Shown one piece after another: positions 3,849-31,484 of a stretch of 52,277 nucleotides of DNA. The notes under the pieces were generated by a model. The model was not told where the DNA came from, did no database searches, and was given only the letters and a program-made list of their open reading frames with translations. The DNA is from an uncultured Methanosarcinales archaeon (GTDB lineage Archaea > Nanobdellota > Nanobdellia > Woesearchaeales > CAYVYK01), in assembly GCA_964455675.1 (NCBI GenBank), contig CAYVYK010000005.1, positions 62,001 to 114,277 on the forward strand, given 5' to 3'. The translations under genes were made by a program, and so were the position numbers. Numbering within the stretch: the first letter of the stretch is position 1; the number at the start of each line of letters is the position of its first letter.

Positions 3849-3849
3849 C

Positions 3850-7935: not shown

Positions 7936-8035
7936 NNNNNNNNNNNNNNNNNNNNNNNNNNNNNNNNNNNNNNNNNNNNNNNNNNNNNNNNNNNNNNNNN
8001 NNNNNNNNNNNNNNNNNNNNNNNNNNNNNNNNNNN
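7936..8035. other. Assembly gap (100 N) covering the pncB start
   Basis: Run of N. Confidence 1.
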
Positions 8036-9357: not shown

Positions 9358-9359
9358 GT

Positions 9360-10235: not shown

Positions 10236-10762
10236 TGCCAAGAGCGATAGTCCGTCCTCTTGATCTTGGGGATCTCGACCACATGATGGAGTGGGTGAAT
10301 GATCGAGAAGTCATTGGCAATTTTGCGAATTTTGCGACTCCTACGTCACGATCCCAGGAGCAGAAGTATCTCGAAAATCTTCTGAAAAGCGAGACGGACA
10401 AAGCTTTTACGATTGAGACCGAACAGGGTGACTATCTTGGGACCGTTGGCATTTATCAAATCCATTGGCCGGCGCGTTCGGGCAGGCTTGGCATCATTAT
10501 TGGCAAACCAGCTTTGCGAGGCAAGGGGTACGGCCAGAGTGCAATCAAGGATGTCCTACGATTGGCATTTGAACAGTATAACCTACATAAGGTTTGGCTC
10601 GTTGTCTTCGAGGAGAACGCGCGCAGTCGCCACGTGTACACCAAATGTGGATTTCGTGAAGAGGGAATCTTGCGGGATGAGTACTTCCATCAGGGAAAGT
10701 ACCACAATATGGTGCGGATGTCCATTCTTGATCGTGAATATTTTGCAGAGGTGAAGATATGA
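10232..10762 (+). CDS. GNAT (RimJ/RimL-type) N-acetyltransferase
   Basis: RGKGYG, LHKVWL.V...N, Y.KCGF.EEG.LR. Confidence 0.9.
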   Translation: MMPRAIVRPLDLGDLDHMMEWVNDREVIGNFANFATPTSRSQEQKYLENLLKSETDKAFTIETEQGDYLGTVGIYQIHWPARSGRLGIIIGKPALRGKGYGQSAIKDVLRLAFEQYNLHKVWLVVFEENARSRHVYTKCGFREEGILRDEYFHQGKYHNMVRMSILDREYFAEVKI

Positions 10763-12762: not shown

Positions 12763-12834
12763 GGATGCTTGTGCGTGACAGTCTTTTTTTCATCCATTTT
12801 TATGAATTAATGTATGAATCACTCAATGAAAGAC

Positions 12835-12855
12835 TTAGTGTAAAAAGTACAGGAT
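12835..12855 (+). promoter_or_regulatory. NrtR-type operator upstream of the second transcription unit
   Basis: TTAGTGT-aaaaagt-ACAGGAT. Confidence 0.6.
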
Positions 12856-12866
12856 GGTGAAAGAAC

Positions 12867-13316
12867 ATGGAGAGGAATCTCAAACCATACGGATGGCCGA
12901 TACCGACGACGGATATCATTATTGAGTACGAACAGCAGGGTAAGGCGGGGATAGTGCTCATTACAAGGAAGAATCCGCCTTACGGCATTGCGATTCCAGG
13001 TGGCGTTGCCGAGCTTGGGCTCACGCTTGAGGAGAACGCAGAGAAGGAAGCTCGCGAAGAAACCGGCCTTGTTGTCAGACTGAAAAATCCACAGCGGCCT
13101 TATGTGTACTCTTCCCCCACGCGCGACCCGCGCCATCATATGATCAGCAACACGTACATCGCCGTGGGGTCTGGTACCCTCTGCGCGGGAGATGACGCGG
13201 CCTCTGCAAATCTGTACACGCCTGAGGAGGTCCGAAGCCTTCTTGGTAAAGGCCTCTTTGCATTCGATCATGAGGATATTCTTCGTGATTACCTATCGAG
13301 AGGTGACGCGAGATGA
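12867..13316 (+). CDS. Nudix hydrolase (ADP-ribose pyrophosphatase-like)
   Basis: Nudix box, RDPR, AGDDA, FAFDH. Confidence 0.88.
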   Translation: MERNLKPYGWPIPTTDIIIEYEQQGKAGIVLITRKNPPYGIAIPGGVAELGLTLEENAEKEAREETGLVVRLKNPQRPYVYSSPTRDPRHHMISNTYIAVGSGTLCAGDDAASANLYTPEEVRSLLGKGLFAFDHEDILRDYLSRGDAR

Positions 13317-13924
13317 GCCTTGGGAGATGTGGGGTCGTCGGCAGATTCAAACCGCTGCATCTTGGCGGAGCTCGTATGCTCGATGCTGTCTGTGCGCAGG
13401 CAGATCATGTCATTATAGGGGTCGGGAGCTCCAACAAGTATAACCTTCGTAATCCCTTTACAGCAGATGAGTCTGAGGGTATGATCCGCGCATACTTATC
13501 TCCGAGATTTGCCAACTACTCCTTCATTCACATTCCTGACTATGGGCACATTCCAGAGTATCGCGATGGCCAGCGTTGGAAACGGCATGTTATCGAGGGG
13601 TATGGCAGCCTTGATTGTTTTGTCTCGGGTAACGCTTACGTGTCTGATCTCTTGCAGGATTCTTACCCCATCATCGATTCCCCATCTCTCATTCCGCGGG
13701 ATCAGTGGATCCGCTTGAAAGCGTCGGCAGTCCGAGTCGCGATGGCAAAAGGTGACGAGTGGAGGGGAATGGTTCCTCGCGAGGTTGCGGAGTATCTGGA
13801 TGATCATGCGCTTGTCGAGCGTTTCCGTCGAGAATTTGGTCTGGAGACTCTAGCTTCGAGCGTAGCAGATCCTTCACGCCCTGAATCCTTGCGCATGGAA
13901 CGTGATCACACGTATGAAAGGTGA
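13313..13924 (+). CDS. NadM-like nicotinamide-nucleotide adenylyltransferase
   Basis: GRFKPLHLG, IGVGS, RNPFT, ASAVR...W..MVP; the HxGH motif appears as HLGG. Confidence 0.8.
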   Translation: MSLGRCGVVGRFKPLHLGGARMLDAVCAQADHVIIGVGSSNKYNLRNPFTADESEGMIRAYLSPRFANYSFIHIPDYGHIPEYRDGQRWKRHVIEGYGSLDCFVSGNAYVSDLLQDSYPIIDSPSLIPRDQWIRLKASAVRVAMAKGDEWRGMVPREVAEYLDDHALVERFRREFGLETLASSVADPSRPESLRMERDHTYER

Positions 13925-13928
13925 AACG

Positions 13929-14690
13929 ATGCGAATAGGAAACTATGATATCGTACGGCAGATCGGTGAGGGTGGCTTTGGTCGGACGTACGAAGCACGC
14001 CACATCCTACTTGGGACGAGAGCCTGCATCAAGCAGAATTCGAACATAACGGACGACGACGCGAAACTCTTGATGGACGAGGCGCGGGTCCTTTGGGACG
14101 TGCATCACCACTCCCTTCCCTCAATGCATGATTTCTATCGCGCTCCTGACGGAAGCTACATCATGGTCATGAGTTTTGTGGAAGGCAAGAACCTTGAGGA
14201 TATCGTGAAGAAGCATAAGGCAATTCATCCTGAGGATGTATCATGGGTAACGCAGCGCCTCCTCAATGCGCTCCACTATCTTCATGCATCTGGTGTGATT
14301 CACGGTGACGTGAAGCCTCCAAACGTGATTGTTCAGCCGCGTGTGCATAACGCGGTGCTTGTGGATTATGGCCTTGCCTCCGTCCGTCCGCGGAGCACGA
14401 CTAAGCCCATGGGTTACACAGCGATGTTTGCGGCTCCCGAGATACTCGACGGAAAACCTCCAATTCCTGAGTCTGATCTGTATTCGCTAGGCTTGACGAT
14501 GGTCTACACGCTTGGCGGCGATGTGGTTTCTAAAATAATGCCCGAAACGGTTCCTGCGCCCTTGCAGGAATTCTTTGCGGAACTCACTCGTTACAATCCT
14601 CTCGATCGTCCAAACTGGGACAAGTGCGATCTTGTTGCGAGGTTATCGGATATTCGCCAGGACGTGTTTGGGAGGAGGAGCACGAAATGA
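13929..14690 (+). CDS. Hanks-type Ser/Thr protein kinase (kinase domain only)
   Basis: GEGGFG, HGDVKPPN, DYG, APE, SDLYSLG. Confidence 0.93.
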   Translation: MRIGNYDIVRQIGEGGFGRTYEARHILLGTRACIKQNSNITDDDAKLLMDEARVLWDVHHHSLPSMHDFYRAPDGSYIMVMSFVEGKNLEDIVKKHKAIHPEDVSWVTQRLLNALHYLHASGVIHGDVKPPNVIVQPRVHNAVLVDYGLASVRPRSTTKPMGYTAMFAAPEILDGKPPIPESDLYSLGLTMVYTLGGDVVSKIMPETVPAPLQEFFAELTRYNPLDRPNWDKCDLVARLSDIRQDVFGRRSTK

Positions 14691-14755
14691 TGGAAGGATG
14701 ATGGTTGATAGGTGATTGTTCAGCAACGACATGAAGATGGTTGGAGGTGAAGACC

Positions 14756-15730
14756 ATGTACAGTTGGGGAGATGATACAAAAGAGTGGAAGAATCCTGGA
14801 GCGTTCAAGTATGATGACGCAAAGAAGGGTTATTTAGAAAAACTAGCCGCAGAGGCGACGGAAAAAGGGCCGAGAACCTACCTTACGAAGAAACAACCGA
14901 ACATGAAGATCGTTGATCCGCTCGGTAAGGATATCAGCACGGATAGTAAGAATCCTGTGATTGTTGCAGTGGATGGCACAGGTTCGATGCAGCAGTGGCC
15001 TGCAGGCATTTTTGACCGTTTGCCCTTGCTCTATCAAACGCTCTCGCAATGGCGGGATGATGTTGAGCTTTCGTTTGCGGTTATTGGGGATGCGAACGGC
15101 CCCGATAAGTGGCCTGTGCAAATGACCCCGTTTGGCAAAGGCGTTGTGCTCGATGATTATCTGAAGGCCTTGCATGCGGAGGGTAAAGGTGGCCCCGGAA
15201 TCCGTGAAAGCTATGAGCTCTGGGCGTACTTTGTTAAGGAACATGTGAGGACGCCGAACGCAAAAGCCCCATTCTTGTTTGTTATGGGTGACGAGATGTT
15301 CTACAACCAGGTGAATCCTGAACAAGTGCAGCAGCATTTCGGTGGTGGCCTGCAGGAACCTGTAAGTTCGGTGGATGTCTGGAAATCCCTTGCAGAGCAT
15401 TATGACATTCGCTTCCTGCGAAAGTCCTATGACGGCCATGATGCAAGAATCAGGGATCAATGGGGTTCTGCCATTGGTGTTGATCATATCGTCGACGTTC
15501 CGACGCCCCAGGACATGAACGATCTGCGTATCGTTGATATCGCGATGGGCATTGTGGCGAAGGACTGGGGGAAATTCTCTCAATACCAGAAGAGCCTTGC
15601 TGCGCGTCAGGATGGCAAGAGTATCAAGACCGTGATGGACTCATTGCGTGCTGCATCAGTTGCAGGGACGATGAAATCGACATATGCGGGAAAGGAAGGA
15701 CCAAAGAGCGAAAGCCTAACGGAGGTGTGA
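14756..15730 (+). CDS. vWA-domain protein
   Basis: MIDAS-like VDGTGSM, IGD, ESYEL, FVMGDE. Confidence 0.75.
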   Translation: MYSWGDDTKEWKNPGAFKYDDAKKGYLEKLAAEATEKGPRTYLTKKQPNMKIVDPLGKDISTDSKNPVIVAVDGTGSMQQWPAGIFDRLPLLYQTLSQWRDDVELSFAVIGDANGPDKWPVQMTPFGKGVVLDDYLKALHAEGKGGPGIRESYELWAYFVKEHVRTPNAKAPFLFVMGDEMFYNQVNPEQVQQHFGGGLQEPVSSVDVWKSLAEHYDIRFLRKSYDGHDARIRDQWGSAIGVDHIVDVPTPQDMNDLRIVDIAMGIVAKDWGKFSQYQKSLAARQDGKSIKTVMDSLRAASVAGTMKSTYAGKEGPKSESLTEV

Positions 15731-16605
15731 GTATGGGGATGTCAAAAGCGTACAAGAGCAGTGGCGCGGTGTTTGAGCAGGTAAGCATGCGCTATCAACC
15801 GCAGCTACTCGAGCGTCTGCGGGCGGTGGGTGGTAAGGATATCGTCGTCGTGCAGGGAACCTATGACCACATGGAAAAATTGCTCGACACAATCAGGGTT
15901 CCCTATACCTTGATCGGTTCTGAAGATGTTGCTGGCCATAATGGAGGACGTGTGATGTTCGTGAACTGCAAAGCGTATGACACGGGCGCGCCTGTTGCCG
16001 CTGTTAAGGGATTTGTCGAGGCTGGCGGTCGCCTGGTAACAACAGACTGGGCTCTAGGATTGACCGCGAAGGCGTTTCCCCATCGGTTGGCGAAGGTGGG
16101 ACAGACGCCGGACGACGTGATCGAGATCCAGTGCCATTCGGATCTTGCACGACGTTTTGTGGGAATGAATTATGCGCAGTGTTCGCCAAAGTGGTGGCTT
16201 GAAGGTAGTAGCCACGTGTACACCATAAAGGACGGCGTGACTCCGATCATTCTCTCGGAGGAAATGAAGGAAAAGTATGGATCGCCGTATGTGGCGGTTG
16301 GTTTTCCTGCAGGCCGTGGCGAGGTGTTTCACTTCATCAGCCATCTGGAATTGCAGCGCACGCATCTTCGTAGCAAAGCTGACAAGGGAAGCCTTGATGA
16401 TTACCTAGCAAAGATGAAGATCGAGCGCACGGATGAGATGGAGGACGCGCACGTTGCGGAATTGGAGGCTGCGTTTAGCACACTGAACACGCTCGCGTAC
16501 TTGTGCCTGCCAACGCCTCTGCTTAACCAGGGCATGAATAGCGTGACAATGGACGTGCATGCGGCAGATCCATCAAAAACCATGAAGAGTGTGAAGCTCG
16601 CATGA
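15727..16605 (+). CDS. Hypothetical protein, class I glutamine amidotransferase-like fold
   Basis: FVNC...FVEAGGRLVTTDWA and G.VFHF.SH pattern; translationally coupled. Confidence 0.55.
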   Translation: MSMGMSKAYKSSGAVFEQVSMRYQPQLLERLRAVGGKDIVVVQGTYDHMEKLLDTIRVPYTLIGSEDVAGHNGGRVMFVNCKAYDTGAPVAAVKGFVEAGGRLVTTDWALGLTAKAFPHRLAKVGQTPDDVIEIQCHSDLARRFVGMNYAQCSPKWWLEGSSHVYTIKDGVTPIILSEEMKEKYGSPYVAVGFPAGRGEVFHFISHLELQRTHLRSKADKGSLDDYLAKMKIERTDEMEDAHVAELEAAFSTLNTLAYLCLPTPLLNQGMNSVTMDVHAADPSKTMKSVKLA

Positions 16606-17498
16606 GCGGCGCAATCGTGACCATCCCGCCATACGCTCCGTTTATCCGAGAGGTCGCCCTTCATCCGATGGTTACGGGACTGCGCTTGAACACGGTTATG
16701 CCGACGAAGGGCGGCCTTGAGGATCTTTTACGGCGGCTCAAGCATGATACCTTGGACAAGGATCTCTGGATTGATTTAAAATGCCGTCAGCTTCGGGTGA
16801 AAACGTTTGGGGTTCCTCCGTTCACTGAAATTGAGCTTACGCATAGGATTACTGTTGAAACACCGGTGACCGCGTACTTTAGCGATGGCCGAGAATACGC
16901 GACCGTTCTTGAAGTGGATGGCAACCGCTTGATCATGCAGGAAGGCCCAGGTCGTGTCGTTGGTCCTGGTGAGGCGGTGAATATTCCCCACCCTTCACTC
17001 AGGGTTGAGGGGTATCTCACTGACCTTGACAAGGCATACCTTGAGGCGGGGCAAAAGGTCGGCATCAGGAATTACATGCTCTCATTCGTCGAGAGCCCGT
17101 ATGATGTCCAAAGCGTGCAGAACTTGTGTAGTGACGCAAATCTTGTAGCCAAGATTGAGTCTCGTCATGGACTTGCCTACGTTGCTCATCAGTGGAAAGG
17201 GGAAGCTAGGCTCATGGCCGCGCGAGGCGATCTTTACGTCGAGGTCGGCATGCCCCATGAGATCATCCCAGCCATGGAAAGTATCATCGGGAAGGATAAG
17301 AATGCCATTGCTGCGTCGAGAATTCTTACGAGCCTATCTCGTTCTCCCGAGCCCTCATCTCCTGACATCAGCGATGTGGATAGCCTCATGCGAATGGGCT
17401 ATCGAACGCTCATGCTCGGTGATGATGTCTGCATGCGTAGGGAATCGGTCATCAGCGCGCTGAATGTACTGGACGCGATGTGTGGGAGGTATGTCTGA
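16602..17498 (+). CDS. Pyruvate-kinase-like protein (barrel and B domain only, 298 aa)
   Basis: LRLN, DLKCRQLR, SFVES, AKIES and MAARGDL; no C-terminal alpha/beta domain. Confidence 0.85.
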   Translation: MSGAIVTIPPYAPFIREVALHPMVTGLRLNTVMPTKGGLEDLLRRLKHDTLDKDLWIDLKCRQLRVKTFGVPPFTEIELTHRITVETPVTAYFSDGREYATVLEVDGNRLIMQEGPGRVVGPGEAVNIPHPSLRVEGYLTDLDKAYLEAGQKVGIRNYMLSFVESPYDVQSVQNLCSDANLVAKIESRHGLAYVAHQWKGEARLMAARGDLYVEVGMPHEIIPAMESIIGKDKNAIAASRILTSLSRSPEPSSPDISDVDSLMRMGYRTLMLGDDVCMRRESVISALNVLDAMCGRYV

Positions 17499-17500
17499 TG

Positions 17501-17878
17501 TTAAGAAACGTAGCGGTGCGCTTCGGCAATTTTGTCAGTGATATCTCCCCTCCATCCGACCATAACCGCTGGTCTATGGCCTTCTCTGACGAGGTATGGA
17601 ATAACGCGAGCGGGAATCGAGTCGCCTTCCGGGCAAAAAACGACGGTCGGGATGCTGTGTTCGTCATGCAGTCGAAGGACCGCATCGAGGTACAGGCCAT
17701 TTCGGACAACGATAAGGTCTGTGTCGCAGGGATTAAGGCTGATGAATGCAAGCGCTTCAGCTGCCCTTCCTCTTCCTGGATTGAATACTCTCGGATAATG
17801 CTCGCGCACAGCGTCAACAAGCGGCTTGTTACCATAGATCGCAGAATCCACGACAACTGCCCATTTATCAGTATTCAT
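17501..17878 (-). CDS. Hypothetical protein, possibly a degenerate CheY-like receiver
   Basis: AVVVD, DLIVV and IPTVVF strand pattern; fills the intergenic space. Confidence 0.45.
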   Translation of the reverse strand: MNTDKWAVVVDSAIYGNKPLVDAVREHYPRVFNPGRGRAAEALAFISLNPCDTDLIVVRNGLYLDAVLRLHDEHSIPTVVFCPEGDSIPARVIPYLVREGHRPAVMVGWRGDITDKIAEAHRYVS

Positions 17879-17943
17879 GGACTGATAGGGTTCAATTCAC
17901 ATTTAAAAAACCGTATGGTCCCTAATCCTCGGAGGCAGCCTGC

Positions 17944-18759
17944 ATGAGATACCTGCTTGATACTGATATTGGCTCAGATATTGATGACGCTCTCGCACTG
18001 CTCTATGCAGCATCGCAAGGGCTCCAATTTGATCTGATTACGACGGTGCATGGTGATACTGCGTGCCGTGCGCGTATTGCACGGAAGCTGTGCGATCTGG
18101 TTCGCTATGATGCGCCTGTTGTCGCAGGAGAAAGTGTGCCTCTGCGGCAGACGCATATCTACGCAACAGGGCTTGAGGGTAAAGGTTTTGTCAATGCAAG
18201 GACTCGCGTGCCAACTCATGGAGTTGATGCCCTCATAGAAGAAATCATGGCAAACAAGCATGATGTTACCATCGCCGCTATCGGTCCATTGACGAATCTT
18301 GCTCGCGTCTTTGAGCGGCATCCAAAGATTGCATCCTACATTTCTGGTATTTATATGATGGGGAATGCCATTCTCACACCAAAAACCTATTATGTGAATT
18401 ACCGTTCGCACAATTTCAAAGTAGATCCTGAAGCTGTTGATATCGTGATGGGTGCTGATGTGCCAAAGACGATTATTACTACGGAAGTCGCAAAGAAATC
18501 CGCGCTCTCGAGGGCGGTTATCCAAGCACTTGGCAGGAAGCACAACCCTGCATTCAAGTATGTGCGTAATGCTGGTATCGCGTGGATGGATTTCATCAAG
18601 TATTCAGACTGCTATCTGTATGATCCTCTCGTCGTGCACCATCTTATGGATGATGCGATAACAGCGAAGAAAACGTACGGGAATGTGCGTATAACCACAG
18701 GCGTCGATCCTGGATTTGCCGAGCATGTTGCGGGTGCGCTCAAGGGGTGGATCACATGA
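17944..18759 (+). CDS. Inosine/uridine-preferring nucleoside hydrolase
   Basis: DTDIGSDIDDALA, IGPLTNLA, N...DPEA, YDP. Confidence 0.92.
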   Translation: MRYLLDTDIGSDIDDALALLYAASQGLQFDLITTVHGDTACRARIARKLCDLVRYDAPVVAGESVPLRQTHIYATGLEGKGFVNARTRVPTHGVDALIEEIMANKHDVTIAAIGPLTNLARVFERHPKIASYISGIYMMGNAILTPKTYYVNYRSHNFKVDPEAVDIVMGADVPKTIITTEVAKKSALSRAVIQALGRKHNPAFKYVRNAGIAWMDFIKYSDCYLYDPLVVHHLMDDAITAKKTYGNVRITTGVDPGFAEHVAGALKGWIT

Positions 18760-19607
18760 AGAATGTCCTCGTTGTTTTCAAGAAAAGCGCGTATGAGTTA
18801 TACATGAATTCGCCGGATGAGGAGGTTCAGGAATTCATGCGCACAAAGGAGCAGGATGTTGCGTCCATGAAGCGTAGCCATGATGAGCAGAAGCGAACGC
18901 TCGATGTCGTGACGAATGAGTTAATGCGTACTGGTGTGCACGTTGATACGATCTATCGGGCGGATCTGTCGCCCATCCTTGATCGCGATCTCGTTGTATC
19001 CGTTGGTGGAGACGGGACCTTCCTTGAGGTGGCTCATTATGTTGATACCGTTCCGATTCTTGGAGTCAATTCTAGTCCTGGGAGCAGCGTGGGGTTCTAT
19101 TGTTGTTCAAACGCTGATACCTTTTCAAGGGTATTGGATTCGTTTGGTGACATGCCGCGCACACATGCAGAGCGACTCGCGCTCCGTATAGACGGTAAAA
19201 TCGTTCCAGAACTTGTGCTCAATGATGTGCTCTATGCCCATCCAAATCCTGCAGCGATGTCCCGCTATCAGCTGAGAATTGATGATGCTCCGCAGGTTCA
19301 GTTGCGGGACAGCGGGCTTCTTGTTTGCACCGCGGTTGGTTCTTCCGCGTGGATGTATAATGAGGGAGGGGAAGAAATGCCCATTGAATCCGAGCTTCTT
19401 CAGTATCGTCAGCGTGGAATGAGAAGTCCCCTGCACGGATACGCCTCCGCGCTTGATCTGAGATCCATCACACGCGAAGGTAGACTGTATATTGATGGTC
19501 AGCATCTCACGTATGCTCTTGGTCTTGGATCCACCGTTTCATTTCGCAGAGGAAAACCTCTGACGATCATCGGAGATATTGCAGAGAAAAGATCTCATAA
19601 TTCCTGA
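18756..19607 (+). CDS. nadK: NAD kinase
   Basis: GGDGTFL, LGVN, LND, GLLVCTAVGSSAW. Confidence 0.9.
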   Translation: MKNVLVVFKKSAYELYMNSPDEEVQEFMRTKEQDVASMKRSHDEQKRTLDVVTNELMRTGVHVDTIYRADLSPILDRDLVVSVGGDGTFLEVAHYVDTVPILGVNSSPGSSVGFYCCSNADTFSRVLDSFGDMPRTHAERLALRIDGKIVPELVLNDVLYAHPNPAAMSRYQLRIDDAPQVQLRDSGLLVCTAVGSSAWMYNEGGEEMPIESELLQYRQRGMRSPLHGYASALDLRSITREGRLYIDGQHLTYALGLGSTVSFRRGKPLTIIGDIAEKRSHNS

Positions 19608-21911: not shown

Positions 21912-23129
21912 CTAGCGAAGGCCCAAGAAAAACAGCATGACGGGAACGAGAATGCACGCCATGGTGTTTGATCGCTTTACTCCGACGAGAGGAGCGAGGA
22001 GTCCGACAGCTGTTGATGTGATGAGTACAAGGAGTCCAGGCAGTCCACAGAGGAGTATTGCGAGTACTGTCACAAATGACATGATCGCAATGCACACGCG
22101 CTGATAGTTGATCTTGCTCATGATGTTTGCAAATACCCTGGCAAGCGATAGCGTGATGAACGCAGCTATTCCTCCCGTTATGGCGCAGACGGCGAGCAGT
22201 GTCCACAGATCGTGCAGGCTGATGTGCGCGGTGAGTTCTTGCAGTGCGACGATCGCCCCGTTGCGCGGTTTGTCAAGCGCATAGAATGCGCCTAGTCCGA
22301 AGACAAAATTTGATGTGCTGATACCGCCAGTAAGTATGAGAAATCCGTACTCACCGAGTCCTCCAATAAGATACAGGCAGACTGTTGCGGCTGTTGAGCT
22401 GCCGACTCCGGGGAGCATGCCGACGAGCGAGCCGCTGAATACCGAGCCCGCTATCGCTTTGATCTGCGCGATCGGCGAAATCTTGAGTGATGCGGATGTT
22501 TCTTGTGGTGGGATCTTCATTTCTTCGTCGAGAGCCGTGATAAGTGTTGATATTCCAAACAGTCCTGAGAGGAGCGGAAAGAGCGGCTGTTCGAGCCGTT
22601 CAAAATCAAGCACAATGTACCCAAGCACTCCGGACAGAAGGATGACGAATAATCCCCACACTTTTTTCCCCCATCCTCGTTCCGTGAGGACCATGAAAGA
22701 GAGAACCCAAAGGAGGATGATTCCCATGAGCGGGGAGATGCTGTCATACACTCGTTCGAGGAACGGAATGACCGCCGGGATAATCGCAATCGTCAGGATG
22801 AGCGCGCAAAGACTGCCAAGGACAGTCAGGTAGACTGCTTCGTATCCTTTTCCTTTGAGGAGGAGCTTATGGCCTGGCAGTACGTTCAGTACGGTTGCCT
22901 CATTGGGGGCTCCAAGGAAGATGCTTGGCACAGCATCGACAAATGAGTGCGTGACCCCCATCGAGATGATGAACGCTCCAAGCTCAAGAGGTTGCGTGTA
23001 TTTCAGGAGAATTCCCGACATGCTGACGAGCAGCACGCTCACGAGATTGATATGCACGCCGGGAGTGAGGCCTGTGATAATTCCGCAGAGGATTCCAAGG
23101 ATGGTGGCAAGGAGGAGTGCGATGAACAC
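21912..23129 (-). CDS. Tripartite tricarboxylate transporter TctA family (archaeal DUF112 type)
   Basis: GLTPGVHIN, PSIFLGAP, VLPGH..L..G.G, GVKRS; start set at GTG 23129. Confidence 0.88.
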   Translation of the reverse strand: MFIALLLATILGILCGIITGLTPGVHINLVSVLLVSMSGILLKYTQPLELGAFIISMGVTHSFVDAVPSIFLGAPNEATVLNVLPGHKLLLKGKGYEAVYLTVLGSLCALILTIAIIPAVIPFLERVYDSISPLMGIILLWVLSFMVLTERGWGKKVWGLFVILLSGVLGYIVLDFERLEQPLFPLLSGLFGISTLITALDEEMKIPPQETSASLKISPIAQIKAIAGSVFSGSLVGMLPGVGSSTAATVCLYLIGGLGEYGFLILTGGISTSNFVFGLGAFYALDKPRNGAIVALQELTAHISLHDLWTLLAVCAITGGIAAFITLSLARVFANIMSKINYQRVCIAIMSFVTVLAILLCGLPGLLVLITSTAVGLLAPLVGVKRSNTMACILVPVMLFFLGLR

Positions 23130-23225
23130 GCGTACATGTCGCCAGGTATCCTTCTTATTCCTTTGACCATTTTGTCCGCAAATATTTCGCAATGCTTCAC
23201 TAATATTTACTATATAGTAAACAAT

Positions 23226-23265: not shown

Positions 23266-23270
23266 AGAGA

Positions 23271-23961
23271 GTGGCGGACATATGACTCAGAGGGTGAATC
23301 CTCGCGATTGTCCGCCACGTTGGTGTCAAATGCCCCGCACATTGTCGATATTGCGGATTTCGGGGTATACGGGGCAGCGTTGTGTATTATGCGGCACGCA
23401 CCTCCAGTTTTGAGAGGAGAACTACGATTACGCACCGCGAGTATGTCAGAGTGGCGGACACGCGACGGGTTAAGGTAACTTCGGCTTATGGCCGCCACGT
23501 TGGTGTCTGTTGCCCCACACACCTCTCATATTTAGATGCTGTATGTAGTGGGGCAACGTTGTGCGGCGCGTATGTTGACGGTTTAATCCATCCGAGCTTT
23601 GGCGCGCCGCGTGTATGTCGGAGTGGCGGGCACCTGGGGTACAGTGTGTCATAGTAATCTATGTCCGCCACGTTAATGTCTGCTGCCCCACATCACCGGC
23701 GTTGTGTTTACGAATTCGACAGTGGGGCAGCGTTGTGCGGCGCGCAGTAACTCAGAAGACTGTACCGCTTGTTTTGCGCGCCGCGTGTATGTCTTGTGGC
23801 GGTTAGTCCCGGTATTCTGTAAACGTAATGAAAAAACCGCCACGTTGGTGTCTGTTGCCCCACACGGCCTCGTCAACCAGAGTAACACATTTGTGGGGCA
23901 GATGGTATGTTGTGCGGCGCGCAACTCCACTTAATCTGTTAGGACACCAATTGCGCGCCGC
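23271..23961 (-). repeat. Stem-loop guide-like array, downstream of the Tas-like gene (12 hairpins, A-B-C x4)
   Basis: Stems GTGGCGGA/TCCGCCAC, TGCCCCAC/GTGGGGCA and GCGGCGCG/CGCGCCGC close 27-29-nt unique loops; A stems at 23271, 23451, 23623, 23796. Confidence 0.92.
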
Positions 23962-24026
23962 GTGCGTGACTGGAGAATTCCAGGATGATTCCGGAGCGGT
24001 CGCGCAGTGCACGCCGCTCGTTGAGA

Positions 24027-25757
24027 TTACACGGTCACGAGCTGCTGCTCGTCGATGCGCTTCCACTCTTTGAACAACCACGTGGCGAATTCGCCGAGCA
24101 TGTACCAGATCGCTTGCCTGCGGATGTGGCCGTCGGTGTACATCTCATGGTGGCCCTTGTCTGCGCAGTCAAACTTCTTCTTGTACAAGCGATACGGCGC
24201 GGGGAGAAATGGCGGAGTCTCGTTGGGGAACGGATGCCGGTAGCGTATACCGCGATCATAGTCAATCACGTCATCCCGCATTGCGTCGCGCCATCCATTC
24301 TTCGCGCCGGGACTGCTGATCCTCTCGATGAACCGGTGCTCCCAGTCATGCGGTGCGCGCCATTGCTTCATGCTGTCCGGGAGCTTCCAGTGCTCATCAG
24401 CCTTCGTCGCAGAGCGCCAACCACGCTCTCTGGTTGAGTCCATAATCTCGAGCATGACGACGTTGCCGTCGTTCCAGCCGAACACGCGGTCGAGCCGTTC
24501 GAGGCGATACCCACGCGGTTGTGTGGGATCGTCATGCCGGCGCCATCCGCCGCGGAGCCAATGTCCATTATGTGCACTATCGTCGGGGATTTGCAGAATC
24601 TCAGCGCATTCCCTGCAAAGAATGTCCGGGCGCTGCGTTCTGAGCTCTGCGATCAGCTCGCGTAGTCGATCGCCCCACTGAGTTCCGGGTCGCTTGCTCG
24701 CTTGCATCGCGAGCTGGTAGAGGCTCTGGCGTGCGTCGCCGCTCCAGTTCGCGATCTTTCCAACCTGTCGGTGGGGGAAGCTTCCGTCAGCACGCGGGCG
24801 AACGCCACAGTAGGATGCGAACGCTGCCGCGTTCGGGAATCGCTTGATGTTCTGAACTGCCGCGATGAGGCCGCCTGCGATGCGGGGTCCAACGCCTGTG
24901 ATGCTCGAGAGCACTGCTGTATAGATCGCGGTTCCCTCGACGGCTTCCGCAAGCGCCTTGTAGCATTCGTCCTCGTCCGCCTGCAGGAGCGCGAGCCGCT
25001 CGTTATTGGCGACAGCCGCCTCGCATGCATCGAGGATGCTGCCCTCCGGGTAGTATCCCTCCTCGTTCATGAAGATGCGCCCGTTGAAGCGCTGCCGCAG
25101 CCGTTGTTGGCATGCGATACGGGACTTCATGGCGTCCATACGATCCTGGAAACGTGCACTCACGAGGATCAGGCTCCGCTCCACAGGATCTACCCGGTAA
25201 AAGATCTCGCGCTTCTCCTTGACGAGTGTTGCGAGCAGTTCATGATCGTCGTTCTTGTCGCGCGTGCCACGCTCTTCCTTGAGCCTTGCTGGCGGAATGC
25301 GGAAGATCTCAAATCCCTTCTGTTCGCCACATCGCGAGATGGCGAACGCGAGTGCATCGCCGCTGCCGCCGAGCACCATGCCGACGATATCATCCTTCTC
25401 GAGTCCTTCGAACCTGATCGGCACATGCGTGGCTATCTCGAAGTCGTGCTTGAATCCGAGTAGGATCTTGCGTGCGCGTTCGATCGGGCGCACGAACTTC
25501 TGAGGGTGTTGCGGCACTTCCTCCGCGCTGATGCCCTTCCACCGTACCTGGTAATCGCGAAAGTTCGCAAGTTCATCCTCTTCCGTGATCTCGCGATACT
25601 TCACGGGATGGATGCCGCGCACGAAATCGAGTTCTGCCTGCTCGTCCGGAAGGTCGAGGGTTTTTGTCTTCTCACCCTGGATGATGGTGACTTGCGTCGG
25701 CCGCGGCTTGCCTTCCGCTGTCATCTTCACCCTGTGCCTGATCCCGATGTGTCTCAC
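24027..25757 (-). CDS. IS110/TIGR-Tas-like Nop-domain protein with degenerate RuvC-like N-terminus and large insertion
   Basis: ITGVGPRIAGGLIAAVQNIKRFPNAAAFASYCG (IS110/Nop-like), DGSFP.R..G...NW, C-terminal GHIRRQA.WYM..F..WLFKEW; AGGAGG RBS. Confidence 0.85.
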   Translation of the reverse strand: MRHIGIRHRVKMTAEGKPRPTQVTIIQGEKTKTLDLPDEQAELDFVRGIHPVKYREITEEDELANFRDYQVRWKGISAEEVPQHPQKFVRPIERARKILLGFKHDFEIATHVPIRFEGLEKDDIVGMVLGGSGDALAFAISRCGEQKGFEIFRIPPARLKEERGTRDKNDDHELLATLVKEKREIFYRVDPVERSLILVSARFQDRMDAMKSRIACQQRLRQRFNGRIFMNEEGYYPEGSILDACEAAVANNERLALLQADEDECYKALAEAVEGTAIYTAVLSSITGVGPRIAGGLIAAVQNIKRFPNAAAFASYCGVRPRADGSFPHRQVGKIANWSGDARQSLYQLAMQASKRPGTQWGDRLRELIAELRTQRPDILCRECAEILQIPDDSAHNGHWLRGGWRRHDDPTQPRGYRLERLDRVFGWNDGNVVMLEIMDSTRERGWRSATKADEHWKLPDSMKQWRAPHDWEHRFIERISSPGAKNGWRDAMRDDVIDYDRGIRYRHPFPNETPPFLPAPYRLYKKKFDCADKGHHEMYTDGHIRRQAIWYMLGEFATWLFKEWKRIDEQQLVTV

Positions 25758-25819
25758 GTCTGTTCCTCCTTTTCATGAACCGTGTTGTATTGGGAAGCCG
25801 TCAGGCTTGAGTGTCATGT

Positions 25820-26467
25820 GCTGCCGTGCAACTCCCAAGGTTTAGATTACTTGAGCATCAGCACGGCAGCGTGTGACGGACAGACATGGCTCTGCTTGGA
25901 CGAGTCCTCTTGTCCGCCACGTTGGTGTCAAGCGCGCCCTGCAGTTGGATTCTTTGGTAAAACAGCCCTTCGAGCAGGACGCGTGGAATCTTGTGCGGCG
26001 CGCACTCACACTATTCTCTCAAGGACCTCATTGCGCGCCGCGTGTATGTCGTGTGGCGGACACGAGCGCAATTTATTTTGAGTCGCCTCGTAGTCCGCCA
26101 CGTTGGTGTCAAGCGCTGCTCCGCACCCTCACCATTGGGGTGTATCCACTTCACAGCGGAGCAGCGTGGGGTGTAAAGTGCGGCGCGGAGATCCTCGCAG
26201 GGAAAATGGGCTCCATTATGCGCCGCGTATGTGTCGTGTGGCGGACAATGCCAACTTATGAATGACTGGGACCCTTGTCCGCCACGTTAGTGTCAAGCGC
26301 TGCCCCACATTTCCTGGCGTGGAGTAAGACCATTCCCATTGTGGGGCAGCGTGTGTGTTGTGCGGCGCACAACCACCCATGTTGGTGAAAACTCCCTTGA
26401 GTGCGCCGCGTATATGTTGTGTGCGGACAGTCCCGGTACAGCGATGAACGTAATGATAGTCCGCCAT
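25820..26467 (-). repeat. Stem-loop guide-like array, upstream of the Tas-like gene (11 hairpins)
   Basis: Same three stem classes and linkers; A stems at 25873, 26053, 26238, 26421; loops 27-30 nt. Confidence 0.92.
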
Positions 26468-26892
26468 GTTCGTGTTAACGCATCGAGGGCAAGTCTTATT
26501 CGGGGGTGACTATTCTGACTTTGGAATGTACTCCGCAGGCTAGAGAAATCTGTTTCTTCCACCGACGAAAACGCGAGTTTTCTCGCATTTCCGCTCTTCT
26601 CCATTGTGTTTTCGAGACTGCCGATCCTGTTCATTCAGAGTATTGCTGCATGTGTGCTCGCAATAGCGAGGATGATTGATCGGTCGTGGTGTTGCGCGTT
26701 CTAGCGTTAGGTTTGTTAGGGTAAAATGAGTATCACGAATCGGTAGTGAATATTTAAAGGTTGTTGCGTTTTTTCAAGTCATGAAACGGATTCAATCCGT
26801 CGCCGTAACCCTTCAATAATTTACCACTACTAGATGATGAAAAAGCAAAGGTTTAAAAATCTGGACTACCTTCTCCGTTGCGGTGATACGTA

Positions 26893-27513
26893 ATGCCTGA
26901 TAGACTTTCAGACCTTTCTATGGATGAATTGCTATGCATGGGAGCTGTTGACCTTCTACAGATCGGTCCTGGCGGCCCAGCGAGCCTTGATGCTCATTCC
27001 GCAATCACTCAGAGGGGGAGAAGCGGAGAGAGTTATGACCGCACGGCAGGCCCAAGCAAAGTGCGCCGCGGCTCAAGAGAAATCGGATTCAAGTATCCCT
27101 TGCGCATGCAGGCAGTCATTATTGACAAGCCACGATACGTCGTCCAGCGTGATATTCGGCTTCCGGTCGAGATTGAGCCAGGAAACGTGCAAGAACTTTC
27201 CTGGTGGTATCATCCTGATACGCCCGGCATCACTCGCGTCTTTAGCCGCGGCGATAATGTCGCGGAACTTGATTTTGGAATGACTATGTCATACCTGAAT
27301 GGTGCGTGGCTTGGTGATCCAAGGCAAGTTGAGCAAGTACGCCGTGCACTTGAAACAGAAGTAAGCCTTGCGCAGGCGCAACGGCCTGATAATCCGCACC
27401 GTCTAGAGATTGTTGACAATCTCCATATATTGAGGCAGATGTACAGGAATCATGAGAAACGATTGCCCATCATGCCATGTTCAGTGTATACGCTGTTTGA
27501 GCCCAAAGAATAG
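26893..27513 (+). CDS. Hypothetical protein
   Basis: TTTAAAAA TATA and GGTGA RBS; first gene of the AAA-vWA operon. Confidence 0.7.
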   Translation: MPDRLSDLSMDELLCMGAVDLLQIGPGGPASLDAHSAITQRGRSGESYDRTAGPSKVRRGSREIGFKYPLRMQAVIIDKPRYVVQRDIRLPVEIEPGNVQELSWWYHPDTPGITRVFSRGDNVAELDFGMTMSYLNGAWLGDPRQVEQVRRALETEVSLAQAQRPDNPHRLEIVDNLHILRQMYRNHEKRLPIMPCSVYTLFEPKE

Positions 27514-27520
27514 GTGACGC

Positions 27521-28432
27521 ATGAGCACAGATCCCCAAGAATCCAGAGCGAAAACGTTTGGTATCCAGACCTATCGGGTGACTGAGGATCGGCTCTATGT
27601 GCCTCAGTTTTCTCCTAGCGAAGTTGAGGAACTTCTCATCGCGTATGAGGAGAGAATTCCCGTGGCGCTCATCGGTCCAACAGGTTGTGGGAAGACAACT
27701 CTTGTGGAAAAGCTTGCGTATATGATCGGCCAGATGCATCCCGAAAATCCGTACGCTGGTACGATCACAACGATCCTTGGGCAGGAGGACATGACCGCGA
27801 CGGAATTGCGCGGCGAGCCCATTCTTGGTCCTGGAGGAACAACCAATTTCCAAGAGGGTCCATTGACGATACGCGTGAAGTACGGTGGAATTTTTTATCT
27901 TGATGAGCTCCCCGAAGCCCGGCCTGGAACGCTGACGTCCGTTCACTCCGTGACTGATTATCGAAGGACGCTAACAATCCCTGAGCTTAAGCTCGTGTTC
28001 GAGGCTCCGGATGATTTTATGTTTATGACTTCTTGGAATCCTGGTCATCAGCAGCGAAGGATGAAGATTAGCACTCGCGATCGTTTTTATCCAATCAAAT
28101 TACGTTATCATCCGCCTGAGGTCGAGGCTGGAATCATCTCCCATTACGGTAAGGTGGATGAAGATACCGCGCTTTTAATCGCGCGTGTGGGTGCGCATGT
28201 TCGAGGGGGAACTCCTGATGGAAAGCCGTATCTTGGCCAGCGCGAACTTGGTACGAGGCGGTTGATTGATGCCGCAAAATTCATCCGCCGTGGAAGGCCT
28301 GTCAGGCTTACACTGCAGCGCCTCTCCGCAAGTGTTGATGCATCATCAACAGAAGACCAGCAGGCGCTCGATGAAGCCATTGATACACTCCTTTCGGATA
28401 TGGGTCTAGAGGAGTCAGATGGCGGAAGATAA
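27521..28432 (+). CDS. MoxR-family AAA+ ATPase (CbbQ/NirQ/NorQ type)
   Basis: GPTGCGKT, EDMTA.EL.G, YLDE, D.RR.L, SWNPG, ST.DRF, TRRLI. Confidence 0.92.
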   Translation: MSTDPQESRAKTFGIQTYRVTEDRLYVPQFSPSEVEELLIAYEERIPVALIGPTGCGKTTLVEKLAYMIGQMHPENPYAGTITTILGQEDMTATELRGEPILGPGGTTNFQEGPLTIRVKYGGIFYLDELPEARPGTLTSVHSVTDYRRTLTIPELKLVFEAPDDFMFMTSWNPGHQQRRMKISTRDRFYPIKLRYHPPEVEAGIISHYGKVDEDTALLIARVGAHVRGGTPDGKPYLGQRELGTRRLIDAAKFIRRGRPVRLTLQRLSASVDASSTEDQQALDEAIDTLLSDMGLEESDGGR

Positions 28433-31400
28433 TTCTGATTTGGAATCCCGTGTCAAGGTGAAACTTTCTGCACAATCAAATGCAATTCTTGCAGAGGTCA
28501 TGGCTAGGATAGGTGATCTTGCATTGAGGAGCGGTGGGAGGCTGGTTCCCGTCGCTCAGGTAGCGATCAAGCAACGTCGTAAGAACCTTCTCTATCTGCT
28601 TAATGATCTGCCCCATCTTACGGATCGTGAGCAGGAAGTCTATATCCGCCTTCAGGGTGACATGGCAAGTACTGCTGCCGGCGTATCTCAGAGCGATGAG
28701 CTTCATATGATCTACACCAAGTTCCCTTCGGATGTCCGGGAAATGGTCGCTCGTCATTTGGACATCCTGCAGATTTCGGGGCGATCTGCACACTACCTCT
28801 GCAAGAAGATGGTTGATGGTATAGACAAGGCGCATGGTATCGACCGTCTGAGGAATTCGCTCAACCTTACATTGCGAGGATTTGACGCCTATACCGATGC
28901 GTTTCCGAGGAGGGATTTGGATAGTGAACCGCGGTCTCAAAGAGCTTCGGAGCGGAGAACGTCGCTGTTAAAAACGGCGTATAAAACGTATCACTCCCTA
29001 CCTGTTAAGGTTGAGGAGTGGGAGAACGTTTTGCAGCTTCAGGATGTTTTGCATCAGTACTATTTCGGTCAGGTAAAAGAGTGGATGGCAAAAGAGGATC
29101 CGGTTATCGTATCAGAGACTATATCCAATATTTGGAGGACACGAGGTAATTTCCTGGAGAAGAATTCTGCTCTCGAGAACGTCATTTCATGGCAAGCCCT
29201 CGCAGGTGAATCCGACGGGGCATTACTGCCAATCCTCTGGCATGGTGTTATGAAAGCTCGTGGGGAGATCGTGCATGAATGGTACGATGCGTATCGGAGA
29301 AGGATTCAGTCTAATCCGCGCCGAGCATCCATCGCGCTCGAGCATCTCGCCGCAGTACCGCGTTTGCGAGACGAGGATGAGGTTACGCGAAGATTTCGCG
29401 CGGTCACGCTATTCCTGGACGGAAAAACCGAGGATTTCTGGCTGAGCACGGAAGTCCTCAGCAATCCGAACACTCCTGAGGAATTAAAGCCAGGTCTTGA
29501 TGGAATCGCATCACTTATGGAAAAAAGTTATCACCAGATCGGAAAGAGGTCTGCCCCATCCCGTGCCTGTGAAGAAGTATCTCGTCAGATCATCGGCGAT
29601 CTTCTGCTCCAGAATACGGAGTCTAGTCTGCGCATGATGAGGCTGCTCTCTGATTATGTTCCTCGGGCAGCAAAGCAAGCAGCGCGTGGGGGTAATCCTA
29701 CACTCGAATATATGCGCGCGCTCCGTTCGTTTGCTCAATCATTTTCCGATCTCGTCAACCTCCCTGAGGAACGCGCGCGTGAAGTGCTCGGTTTGACAAG
29801 CGCTCTTCGCTCGAAGGATACTGAACAGCTATCCCGTGATATGGTTCGAAGCGTGCATGACAGGTCTGGTTCTGCCAAACTTGATTCGGTGCGCAGAAAG
29901 CTTGAGTACTATGCGAACATGCTTGCGGGAACAGACGGTGGAATCTCTATCCAGCAGGGAGACATAATCGCTGCAGAATTCAATCCTGAACGGAGAACCA
30001 CGCTGATCTCCCTGCCAAAATCCATGGGCCATTTTTCGGCGGTAGGTGATAACGAGCGGCTGTACAAGGCATTCACCGCCATGTTTGCTGGCCACTTGAG
30101 GTATGCGACGGGCTATGACAAGGAACATGTGTATATCCCAGTTCTTGAGGTCGCCGCTCAGAAGGATAATCCAGAATTATTCCTGCTCGTGCTTGAGGTG
30201 CTTGAGGAGTCGCGCATCCGCTCGCGTTTAGAAGAGGAGTATCCAGGTTCTCGTCAAGACATCGAGCTCCTCTGTCAGTATTTGCTGCAGCGGAGCGAGA
30301 CAAGACGTGCTGATTTGAGCATACGTTCAGGCGATTTATCTTCACTCATTGAGAGGAGCCTTAAGAAGGACCAAGTTCCTGACAGGGTTGGCAAGGCAAT
30401 TGAGAGGGCTACTCATAGGGGTGCTATCTTCGCTGACGCTTTGGAAGCGGCCACAGAATACTATGAAAAAATAAATCCTAGCGATCGCAGGCTTGTTGAC
30501 GAGAAAGAACTTCGTGGTCTCACTGTTGGCGGGTACGCGTCCATCGATAAGATCATCAGCGCCATGGAACGTATCGCTCGCGAGATTCCGCAAGGCCGGA
30601 AATTTCGTTATCCCGAGTTTGACGAAAAAACAGGTCTTGTGATTCCCCAGGCTACCATCGTGACGGAGACTCCCGTACCAATGATCGAGTACACGCCAGA
30701 ACTTACCGTCGCTATCGATCCGCGAATGCTTGATGTGATGATGCAGCAGTTTGAGTTGCTCGCTCCTGAGGAGATCACTAGGCTTCGTGAACAGACACGC
30801 GGCAGACTTTCCTTGCGGGATCATGCGCGGTGGTTTGCGCACAAGGCCGCAGGATCCGCATCCTGCTACCCCAAGTTTTACACAGAGAAGCGCTATAGCA
30901 CGCGCGATGTGGCGGTTGCGGTCGCGATAGAGCTTTCAGGATCAACGAGAGATTTTCTCGGACGCAGCGAATTCAAGGTTGACTACATGAGGATTATTGC
31001 TGATCATCTTGTTCGCTGTATCCAAACGCTCGGTGATGATGTTGCGCTTTTTGCGTATAACGGGCGGGGTTCTGACACGATCCGGTGTACGCCCATCCTT
31101 TCCTTTGGCCAGATGTACGACGAGAATGCTCGCCGGGCTCTGCTCGCGGTTGATCCGCGGGATAACAATCGTGATGGCGCAGTCATCCGTCATGTCGGGG
31201 AATATCACCTTGCAGAGCATCCTGCTCACACCCGTATGCTTATTAATATCACTGATGGTGTTCCTCACGATTTAGGATATGATAATGGATATGGGCTTGC
31301 GGACATCAGGCATGCGTGTAAAAAGCTGCTTGACCGTCAGGTGTACGCAATGAGACTTGTTATTGATCCGAAATTGACAGGAGAGAAAGCGAGCGCCATG

Positions 31401-31484
31401 CAGGATGAGTTCACGACTGTTCTGCATGACTTCAAGCGCGCGATCTATGAGATTCCTTGGATATACTTTCAGAAAACAAGATAA
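28419..31484 (+). CDS. Large CbbO/NorD-like vWA protein
   Basis: YPEFD, C-terminal ELSGST, NRDGAVIRH, ITDGVPHD..Y. Confidence 0.85.
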   Translation: MAEDNSDLESRVKVKLSAQSNAILAEVMARIGDLALRSGGRLVPVAQVAIKQRRKNLLYLLNDLPHLTDREQEVYIRLQGDMASTAAGVSQSDELHMIYTKFPSDVREMVARHLDILQISGRSAHYLCKKMVDGIDKAHGIDRLRNSLNLTLRGFDAYTDAFPRRDLDSEPRSQRASERRTSLLKTAYKTYHSLPVKVEEWENVLQLQDVLHQYYFGQVKEWMAKEDPVIVSETISNIWRTRGNFLEKNSALENVISWQALAGESDGALLPILWHGVMKARGEIVHEWYDAYRRRIQSNPRRASIALEHLAAVPRLRDEDEVTRRFRAVTLFLDGKTEDFWLSTEVLSNPNTPEELKPGLDGIASLMEKSYHQIGKRSAPSRACEEVSRQIIGDLLLQNTESSLRMMRLLSDYVPRAAKQAARGGNPTLEYMRALRSFAQSFSDLVNLPEERAREVLGLTSALRSKDTEQLSRDMVRSVHDRSGSAKLDSVRRKLEYYANMLAGTDGGISIQQGDIIAAEFNPERRTTLISLPKSMGHFSAVGDNERLYKAFTAMFAGHLRYATGYDKEHVYIPVLEVAAQKDNPELFLLVLEVLEESRIRSRLEEEYPGSRQDIELLCQYLLQRSETRRADLSIRSGDLSSLIERSLKKDQVPDRVGKAIERATHRGAIFADALEAATEYYEKINPSDRRLVDEKELRGLTVGGYASIDKIISAMERIAREIPQGRKFRYPEFDEKTGLVIPQATIVTETPVPMIEYTPELTVAIDPRMLDVMMQQFELLAPEEITRLREQTRGRLSLRDHARWFAHKAAGSASCYPKFYTEKRYSTRDVAVAVAIELSGSTRDFLGRSEFKVDYMRIIADHLVRCIQTLGDDVALFAYNGRGSDTIRCTPILSFGQMYDENARRALLAVDPRDNNRDGAVIRHVGEYHLAEHPAHTRMLINITDGVPHDLGYDNGYGLADIRHACKKLLDRQVYAMRLVIDPKLTGEKASAMQDEFTTVLHDFKRAIYEIPWIYFQKTR

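Follow-up and report, generated by a model that had tools for sequence, protein, structure and literature searches.

We analysed a 52,277-nt stretch of DNA (GenBank contig CAYVYK010000005.1, positions 62,001 to 114,277; hereafter the window), the minus strand of which encodes a 576-aa Tas protein, TasR, between two arrays of guide-RNA hairpins. This locus is probably a stem-loop TIGR-Tas system whose effector is a TasR that has lost RuvC catalysis. Judging from the aligned sequences of its relatives, the loss of the RuvC acidic residues is old and family-wide, and the residues that replace them are under selection. The dead RuvC domain is probably kept by selection as a DNA-binding, dimer-bracing scaffold and would not be a decaying relic. 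A role of the window TasR as an RNA-guided binder or repressor is supported by its homology to CsTasR, a TasR of Candidatus Staskawiczbacteria with an equally altered active site.

The gene and its putative ribosome-binding site are located as follows.

24027 to 25757, minus strand: tasR coding sequence (576 aa), a TasR with an inactive RuvC domain.
25765 to 25770, minus strand: Shine-Dalgarno-like AGGAGG, 7 bases before the tasR GTG.

Open reading frame (ORF) analysis of the window gives GTG as the start codon. The N-terminal motif of the product (R2..G5..H8 R9..K11) is invariant or nearly so across relatives, so the 576-aa form starting at this GTG is the real tasR product. The public gene call P0001 (565 aa) begins at M12, and strand beta-1 of the RuvC fold is thereby dropped. 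In G+C content tasR (0.58-0.61) stands above the window as a whole (about 0.50), the kilobase that holds it having the highest value of all (0.61).

Conservation was counted over 51 aligned sequences, i.e. the window TasR and 50 database relatives; a second alignment comprises 26 sequences (the window TasR and 25 relatives). A preliminary description of the gene had noted that HIGIRHR stands in place of the first acidic motif of the RuvC active site, and that the second acidic residue is missing from IVGMVLGG. Both observations hold throughout the family. HIGIRHR occupies residues 3-9, with HIGIR (residues 3-7) forming strand beta-1 in our model, and position 7 is arginine in 46 sequences (Q in 3, I and A in 1 each), acidic in 0/51. 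IVGMVLGG occupies residues 124-131, with IVGMV (residues 124-128) forming strand beta-4; position 128 is V in 21 sequences, S in 9, I in 7, A in 7, L in 4, T in 2 and C in 1, and again acidic in 0/51. The replacing motifs, IRHR and M-x-LGGSG, are kept across the family; L129-G-G-S-G133 is invariant or nearly so in the 51 sequences, as are H8 and R9. The mapping of R7 and V128 to the first two catalytic sites draws on their strands in the model, on motifs of the family and on the published R8/V126 of CsTasR.

The preliminary description held further that only KNDD remains of the acidic site. KNDD is present at residues 168-171, and the last helix of the RuvC domain starts at K168 in the model, but only K168 (48/51) and D171 (49/51) are conserved, positions 169 and 170 being variable. 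Acidic residues are found at position 168 in one of the sequences and at position 171 in 50. The third position of the DEDD site of IS110 enzymes is ambiguous (K168 or D170), because its placement varies with the alignment. BLASTP against an IS110 transposase aligned residues 132-388, placing KND on KND before a long gap; hhalign of the family profile against the IS110 transposase of a Rhodococcus plasmid aligned the C-terminal domain only (residues 240-321). As for the serine loop of IS110 enzymes, said to be replaced by YCGVRPRADGSFPHR, this sequence is indeed found at residues 316-330, with one correction: HMMER aligns its S326 to the serine of the 'YES' loop of IS621, the catalytic S241 (the other catalytic residues being D11, E60, D102 and D105). 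Serine is present at position 326 in 1/51 sequences, the window protein alone, and is therefore best read as chance. The other family members have K (24), R (16) or T (5), with E, Q, I, F and a gap once each, and the aligned residue of the nuclease TaTasR is K. The missing conserved serine is thus a property of all Tas proteins, not special to the window TasR.

An AlphaFold model of TasR was obtained from the 26-sequence alignment. Its mean predicted local distance difference test score (pLDDT) is 76.8, and for the greater part of residues 1-385 and 540-576 the score is above 90. The following parts are distinguished.

25203 to 25757, minus strand: RuvC-like domain, residues 1 to about 185, with R7 and V128 at the first two catalytic sites and K168 and D171 in its last helix.
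25398 to 25649, minus strand: insertion between beta-3 and beta-4, 84 aa (residues 37-120), with a conserved AELDF motif.
24936 to 25187, minus strand: coiled-coil helices (residues 191-274), predicted to form the dimer interface.
24627 to 24929, minus strand: Nop / PF02371 RNA-binding domain, first part, residues 277-377.
24141 to 24626, minus strand: orphan insertion, a 163-residue segment (residues 378-539) rich in W and R, with CxxC at its start and C..HH near its end.
24030 to 24140, minus strand: last Nop helix, residues 540-576 (YTDGHI...W551); the protein ends 1 residue after the helix.

The strands of the RuvC domain follow the order beta1-beta2-beta3 ... beta4-alpha-beta5-alpha with pLDDT above 90. 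The 84-residue insertion forms a small helix-and-sheet subdomain between strands E30-36 and E124-128 and is kept in relatives. Long helices are modelled at residues 191-229 and 240-274, and the last helix at residues 542-575 of 576, without the C-terminal Y/H tigRNA-processing loop. The orphan insertion has pLDDT below 50 over residues 391-470 and 495-536. It is not found in the 25 aligned relatives, and among 1.84 billion representative proteins only the window's own protein matched it; an Atlas look-up gave no usable match, and there are no array-type units within the insertion. It interrupts a zinc-ribbon-like CxxC...C/H element that is compact in some relatives.

Residues 1-390 are predicted to form a homodimer (ipSAE 0.82 versus 0.00 for the best control), three runs having at least 98% of the contacts in common and the partner a pLDDT of at least 75. 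This mark is reached by 20 of 30 proteins solved as same-chain pairs, against 1 of 23 with a single-chain structure; since a similar complex (9MTY) has already been solved, the score may be a sign of this likeness and no more. The predicted dimer brings the invariant GGSG loop and the helix after it into contact with the tip of the partner's coiled coil, which hints that the former catalytic strand may brace the dimer.

In TasR only PF02371, the IS110-type C-terminal domain, is matched by Pfam (E-value = 1.9e-12). With the NCBIfam model NF052498 (TIGR_Tas_endo) TasR reaches 107.6 bits, above the cut-off of 100, in a match spanning residues 205-387 only; with the IS110 model NF033542 it reaches 65.9 bits, under the cut-off of 140. 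The closest solved structure by sequence is TaTasR 9MTY (E-value = 1.5e-9 with TasR alone, 9.3e-25 with the family profile). The same structure is the closest by fold (Foldseek E-value = 8e-10, 273 columns); next come the IS621 and ISCro4 recombinases (8WT6/8WT9 and 9T56; E-value about 4e-9), then TasH. The alignment with IS621 extends over 388 columns and, like that with 9MTY, spans the N-terminal part of TasR. Foldseek similarity of TasR to a Nop5-type fold is not significant (3PLA, E-value = 0.5; 3NMU, E-value = 0.31). The preliminary description had rejected a transposase, and this is supported by the low IS110 score, the lack of the first two DEDD residues in 51/51 sequences and the presence of guide arrays. 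It had also proposed to check the copy number: tasR is present in a single copy within the window, with arrays on both sides in place of a single bridge RNA and insertion sequence ends.

TasR proteins with an 'inactivated' RuvC domain have already been described in Faure et al. 2025 (PMC12045711), where a dead-RuvC TasR clade is discussed as a possible step towards box C/D systems. Two dead-RuvC TasR proteins were solved by Xu et al. (bioRxiv 10.64898/2026.09.09.750476). One of them, CsTasR (547 aa), has R8 and V126 at the first two catalytic positions, an insertion of about 80 residues between beta-3 and beta-4, and tigRNAs on both sides of its gene. It pairs over 9 nt per spacer with no cleavage detected, and CsTasR alone in E. 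coli reversibly represses both a reporter and an E. coli gene in a tigRNA-dependent manner. In the other, PateTasR, an arginine occupies the catalytic pocket and cleavage is undetectable. According to Xu et al., the main gap is the identification of targets.

Judged from the published description of CsTasR, the window TasR fits as a member of this dead-RuvC, stem-loop TIGR-Tas clade, because of R7 and V128 at the first two RuvC positions (R8 and V126 in CsTasR), its 84-residue insertion at the same place as the insertion of about 80 aa, and the lack of a loop after the last helix. Also in common are the Nop domain without a C-terminal Y/H processing loop, stem-loop arrays on both sides with 9-nt spacers, and the absence of a conserved accessory gene. 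A coiled-coil dimer such as that of CsTasR is predicted for the window protein, with the reservation on likeness given above. In contrast, the window TasR carries the 163-aa orphan insertion before its last Nop helix and lacks the insertion of about 90 aa found after the helix-hairpin-helix (HhH) in many 540-550-aa members. Its guides have loop centres of 4-8 nt without a hairpin, AA/UA instead of GA, rare CUU, and three alternating stem types with a super-period of about 180 nt. The flanking genes look DPANN-archaeal and not like genes from Candidate Phyla Radiation (CPR) bacteria.

The guide arrays, which the preliminary description had missed along with the family-wide and published nature of the inactivation and the fact that lacking the serine is normal for every Tas, are as follows.

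25820 to 26468, minus strand: upstream TIGR array, 11 units (listed in minus-strand order: a8, c8, b8, a7, c7, b7, a6, c6, b6, a5, b5).
23270 to 23962, minus strand: downstream TIGR array, 11 parsable units (c4, b4, a4, c3, b3, a3, c2, b2, a2, b1, a1).

The two sides of tasR thus hold 22 parsable hairpin units, and one degenerate unit is found near 23385-23445 in the downstream array. Direct repeats of about 180-nt spacing flank tasR, each period consisting of three hairpin units of about 60 nt. Three stem types alternate through the arrays (GUGGCGGAC / GUCCGCCAC, GCCCCAC / GUGGGGC and GCGGCGCG / CGCGCCGC), closing loops of 29-33 nt. Among the strong hairpins of the window with 26-34-nt loops, 15 of 24 fall in the arrays, which make up about 1.4 kb of the 52 kb. 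When the 22 units are aligned, 94.9% of the cells of the 9-bp stem are paired, versus 69.6% in shuffles; eight of the nine stem pairs change on both sides, with a covariation score reached by 0/500 shuffles. Local hairpins were preferred over global RNA folds, because long-range pairs tangled the global folds of the arrays. Rfam matched no family anywhere in the window, K-turn box C/D guides included, and a tRNA scan of the window found none.

On the tasR strand the loop reads 2 nt, 9 variable nt, U+N, 4-8 nt, 2 nt, 9 variable nt and U. The U after the first 9-nt spacer (loop position 12) is present in 19/22 units, as is the loop-final U after the second (19/22). Units a4 (23795-23844) and a8 (26419-26468), which belong to different arrays, have both 10-nt spacer blocks identical while their stems and loop centres differ, which suggests selection on the guide sequence. 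Within tasR itself, a hairpin at 25554-25597 (around codon 54) has a 7-bp stem and a 30-nt loop that begins with GA, ends with U and carries A as its position 12. This could be a tigRNA unit inside the gene or a chance occurrence.

The strand of the guides can be addressed from related genome loci. In 31 such loci, where the loop plan is clearer, 58 units match GA-N9-UG...GA-N9-U in the tasR sense and 0 in antisense, with a hairpin between the spacers; of 275 hairpins, 168 are U-ended in the sense orientation versus 37 in antisense. Two features of the window bear on the transcript.

23265 to 23237, minus strand: terminator-like hairpin, followed by a run of seven U (U7) at 23236 to 23230, directly after the last array unit.
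26749 to 26777, minus strand: AT-rich stretch resembling a promoter, upstream of the tasR-proximal array, where a transcript of array, tasR and array may start.

The terminator-like hairpin (-17.5 kcal/mol, z -3.88) is equalled by 0/200 shuffles; a generic terminator scan missed it. This hairpin with its U7 and the orientation of the related loci make the tasR strand the likely source of the guides, perhaps in one transcript with tasR. The promoter consensus scan returned 4 sites versus 2.3 expected, which is weak; its consensus is that of sigma-70, and since the host looks archaeal the match is a mere marker of an AT-rich stretch.

These features are consistent with the following mechanism. 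A single minus-strand transcript would start at about 26.75 kb, cover both arrays and the tasR gene between them, and end at the hairpin and U7 at 23.23 kb. As in relatives, host RNases would cleave the A/C-rich linkers, yielding hairpin tigRNAs about 50-60 nt long. A coiled-coil dimer of TasR would bind one such tigRNA, of which the stem closes a 29-33-nt loop presenting two 9-nt spacers, each followed by U. In TaTasR and CsTasR, each of the two spacers pairs with a different strand of an 18-bp DNA site, and the same may be expected here. With R7 and V128 replacing the first two metal-binding residues, the DNA would be held and not cut, as with CsTasR, and the bound complex would act, as CsTasR does, as a roadblock to transcription or another process at the site. 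The preliminary description had favoured an RNA-guided binder or repressor over a standard TasR nuclease, and homology to the CsTasR clade argues for the same view.

TaTasR (9MTY) shares with the window protein the domain order RuvC, coiled coil and Nop, and a dual-spacer guide. However, TaTasR has four acidic residues, cuts both strands and no longer cuts as the D11A mutant, whereas the window TasR has R and V at the first two positions; its 36-nt tigRNAs come from dual-repeat arrays, whereas the guides of the window would be hairpins of about 50-60 nt. IS110 recombinases (IS621, 8WT6; ISCro4, 9T56) likewise combine RuvC with an RNA-binding domain (PF02371). Unlike them, the window TasR is without the DEDD site and the conserved catalytic serine, and in place of one two-loop bridge RNA there are many-guide arrays around a gene that is single-copy in the window. 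Naturally or artificially dead binders of the dCas9 and Cas12k type also keep a RuvC fold without catalysis and bind DNA under guidance, an analogy drawn in the Discussion of Xu et al. (10.64898/2026.09.09.750476). Their sequences are unrelated, and they use a single-strand guide and a protospacer adjacent motif as opposed to two 9-nt spacers on opposite strands.

Several observations weigh against our interpretation. TasR shares no more than 44% identity with any relative seen (46% in the tree alignment, over 263 columns), and a long branch (1.54) separates it from them. The mapping of the catalytic site rests on fold position and motifs and not on superposition, and D123 (invariant in the 26 sequences), D134 (45/51) and D171 (49/51) are still present, so that a rebuilt site is conceivable. 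The orphan insertion has no assigned function and is left without a fold by the model. In the arrays, the dinucleotide before the spacers is AA, UA or UG while relatives have GA, CUU directly after the 3' stem occurs in only 3 linkers (right array), and the loop centres of 4-8 nt are without the hairpin typical of the CPR clade, which is also missing in some relatives (for example loci L025 and L030). As to the strand, G/U-rich linkers would extend most stems through G-U pairs on the plus strand, and internal stem mismatches split, with one G-U on the plus strand versus two A-C. Finally, with no target found in 52 kb, the proposed repressor has no identified object in its host. In the window, 0 sites with at most 2 mismatches were found for paired 9-nt spacers in both opposite-strand arrangements with gaps of 0-2. 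The 22-23 different guides imply many targets.

Two sets of candidate targets within the window were rejected. Matches with 3 mismatches numbered 7 versus 3 in same-strand controls and were dismissed as chance. Pairs of exact 8-mers, one from each half of a loop and no more than 40 nt apart, accounted for 6 rows and 3 places, versus about 6 by our estimate of chance, with none adjacent or rightly arranged.

Nop5 recruits fibrillarin, and Cas12k recruits a transposase. By analogy, the dead TasR with its tigRNA could find DNA or RNA and recruit another enzyme, the orphan insertion being the docking module; a scaffold delivering another activity had been entertained in the preliminary description. 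We regard this as unlikely. In its favour, the insertion is private to the window TasR and is located in the Nop domain, a place of lineage-specific insertions among relatives; the host looks archaeal and would presumably have box C/D partners; and the dead-RuvC clade has been discussed by Faure et al. 2025 in connection with box C/D systems. However, the insertion has pLDDT below 50 and the Nop5 fold similarity is not significant (3PLA, E-value = 0.5), CsTasR represses alone in E. coli, and candidate partners are wanting. Neighbouring gene families were compared across 32 loci, and none occurs in more than four of them once antisense shadows of tasR are set aside, which makes the system look self-contained and leaves the scaffold, although possible, with no support. 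PADLOC, for its part, reports nothing for TasR or its neighbours except weak P-loop matches. The antisense ORFs inside tasR recur as 'families' in 17/32 loci; they are shadows of a conserved gene, not partners.

That TasR is still a nuclease, or a nickase, with a rebuilt or partial site using D123, D134 and D170/D171, appears less probable still. The persistence of D123, D134 and D171 speaks for it, as does the NCBIfam family name 'RNA-guided endonuclease', though that model covers residues 205-387 only. The first two catalytic sites are nevertheless non-acidic in 51/51 sequences, CsTasR and PateTasR show no detectable cleavage, with arginine in the PateTasR pocket and R8 in CsTasR, and the contacts of the GGSG loop and next helix with the partner's coiled coil in the predicted dimer would point to a structural role. 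The family label is an annotation trap: NCBIfam would name TasR an 'RNA-guided endonuclease' although its nuclease site is gone. The public gene call that begins at M12 is a second such trap. A decaying IS110-type element, i.e. a dead transposase with the repeats as remnants of ends or bridge RNA, can be dismissed almost entirely: Pfam sees only PF02371, the super-period of about 180 nt is near the length of a bridge RNA and tasR differs in G+C content from the window, but the ORF is intact with a strong ribosome-binding site, the conservation of the substituting residues across 51 sequences contradicts decay, the 180-nt period resolves into three hairpins of about 60 nt with different covarying stems and different spacers, the window has one copy, and the IS110 model stays below its cut-off.

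The interpretation as a TIGR-Tas system with a dead-RuvC TasR raises the question of its host. Taxon-named relatives of TasR are all from CPR bacteria (5/5). Of the 31 related genome loci, 26 have CPR titles and none is archaeal; of the remaining five, 4 bear proteobacterial bin labels and 1 is titled 'uncultured bacterium'. The assignment of five relatives to Gamma-/Deltaproteobacteria or 'uncultured bacterium' bins is probably a binning or labelling effect. In a midpoint-rooted tree the window TasR falls inside the CPR set, on the branch of 1.54, with weak support (Shimodaira-Hasegawa-like approximate likelihood ratio test, 90). The window does not show the CPR host of the CsTasR clade; this clade is 'predominantly' CPR, so such a host is not strictly defining. 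The TctA permease gene adjoining the array has its 10 taxon-named best matches all in Woesearchaeota or Nanoarchaeota, as have 10 of the 12 taxon-named matches of the NAD synthase (NadE) gene 11 kb away. The TctA and NadE proteins share a single recorded contig of 114,277 nt. TrmB- and LrpA-type regulators and a match to an archaeal-type nicotinamide mononucleotide (NMN) adenylyltransferase are also encoded in the window. The flanking genes at 21912-23180 and 10759-12762 point to a DPANN archaeon.

This suggests a transfer of tasR from CPR bacteria to a DPANN archaeon, a fair reading of two marker genes on a metagenomic contig and of a tree with no outgroup. A CPR-type module may even have moved into a DPANN chromosome and been kept there as a DNA binder with about 23 guides, its insertion and box motifs being adapted to the new host; we put this forward tentatively, as a possibility that is rather doubtful on balance. 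DPANN, Woesearchaeota and Nanoarchaeota are not mentioned in the main texts of Faure et al. 2025 and the Xu et al. preprint, nor in the four supplementary files of the former, of which Table S1 was covered in part. A literature search for TIGR-Tas in combination with DPANN returned a single review, in which both terms occur in the reference list only.

Other genes of the window deserve a brief description. Divergent from the array is an operon (26893-31484) encoding two proteins of no family (206 aa and 1021 aa) and a MoxR-like AAA_5 ATPase. Nothing was found to tie this operon to the TIGR locus: PADLOC assigns it no system, and it is not conserved beside the relatives. A cluster at 7033-19607 encodes NAD salvage and synthesis functions, namely an NrtR-like Nudix regulator, nicotinate phosphoribosyltransferase, NAD synthase, an NMN adenylyltransferase-like protein, a nucleoside hydrolase and NAD kinase, with a Ser/Thr kinase among them. 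At 3820-5143 there are three tandem copies of a unit of about 540-630 nt, 61-79% alike. Each copy has a Shine-Dalgarno-like AAAGGAG and an ORF of 86-112 aa without a Pfam match, and two of the three have a strong hairpin with a T-run; they look like tandem paralogous small genes.

A disarmed Tas protein that binds without cutting has already been published, with structures and repression assays; with such a dead-RuvC binder in print, the central point of this analysis answers no open question. What is new here are the DPANN-like flanking genes, the private insertion, and box motifs unlike those of the relatives. With 22 readable guides on a long contig, the locus would allow a search for targets within its own genome and community. 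Should the transfer into a DPANN chromosome prove true, the recipient would be the first array-bearing cellular host that is not a CPR bacterium, with a natural multi-guide repressor at work in the archaeon itself or on its partners and viruses. If the archaeal host holds, the range of TIGR-Tas would extend beyond CPR bacteria and phages, and gene flow between two groups of ultra-small symbionts would be indicated.

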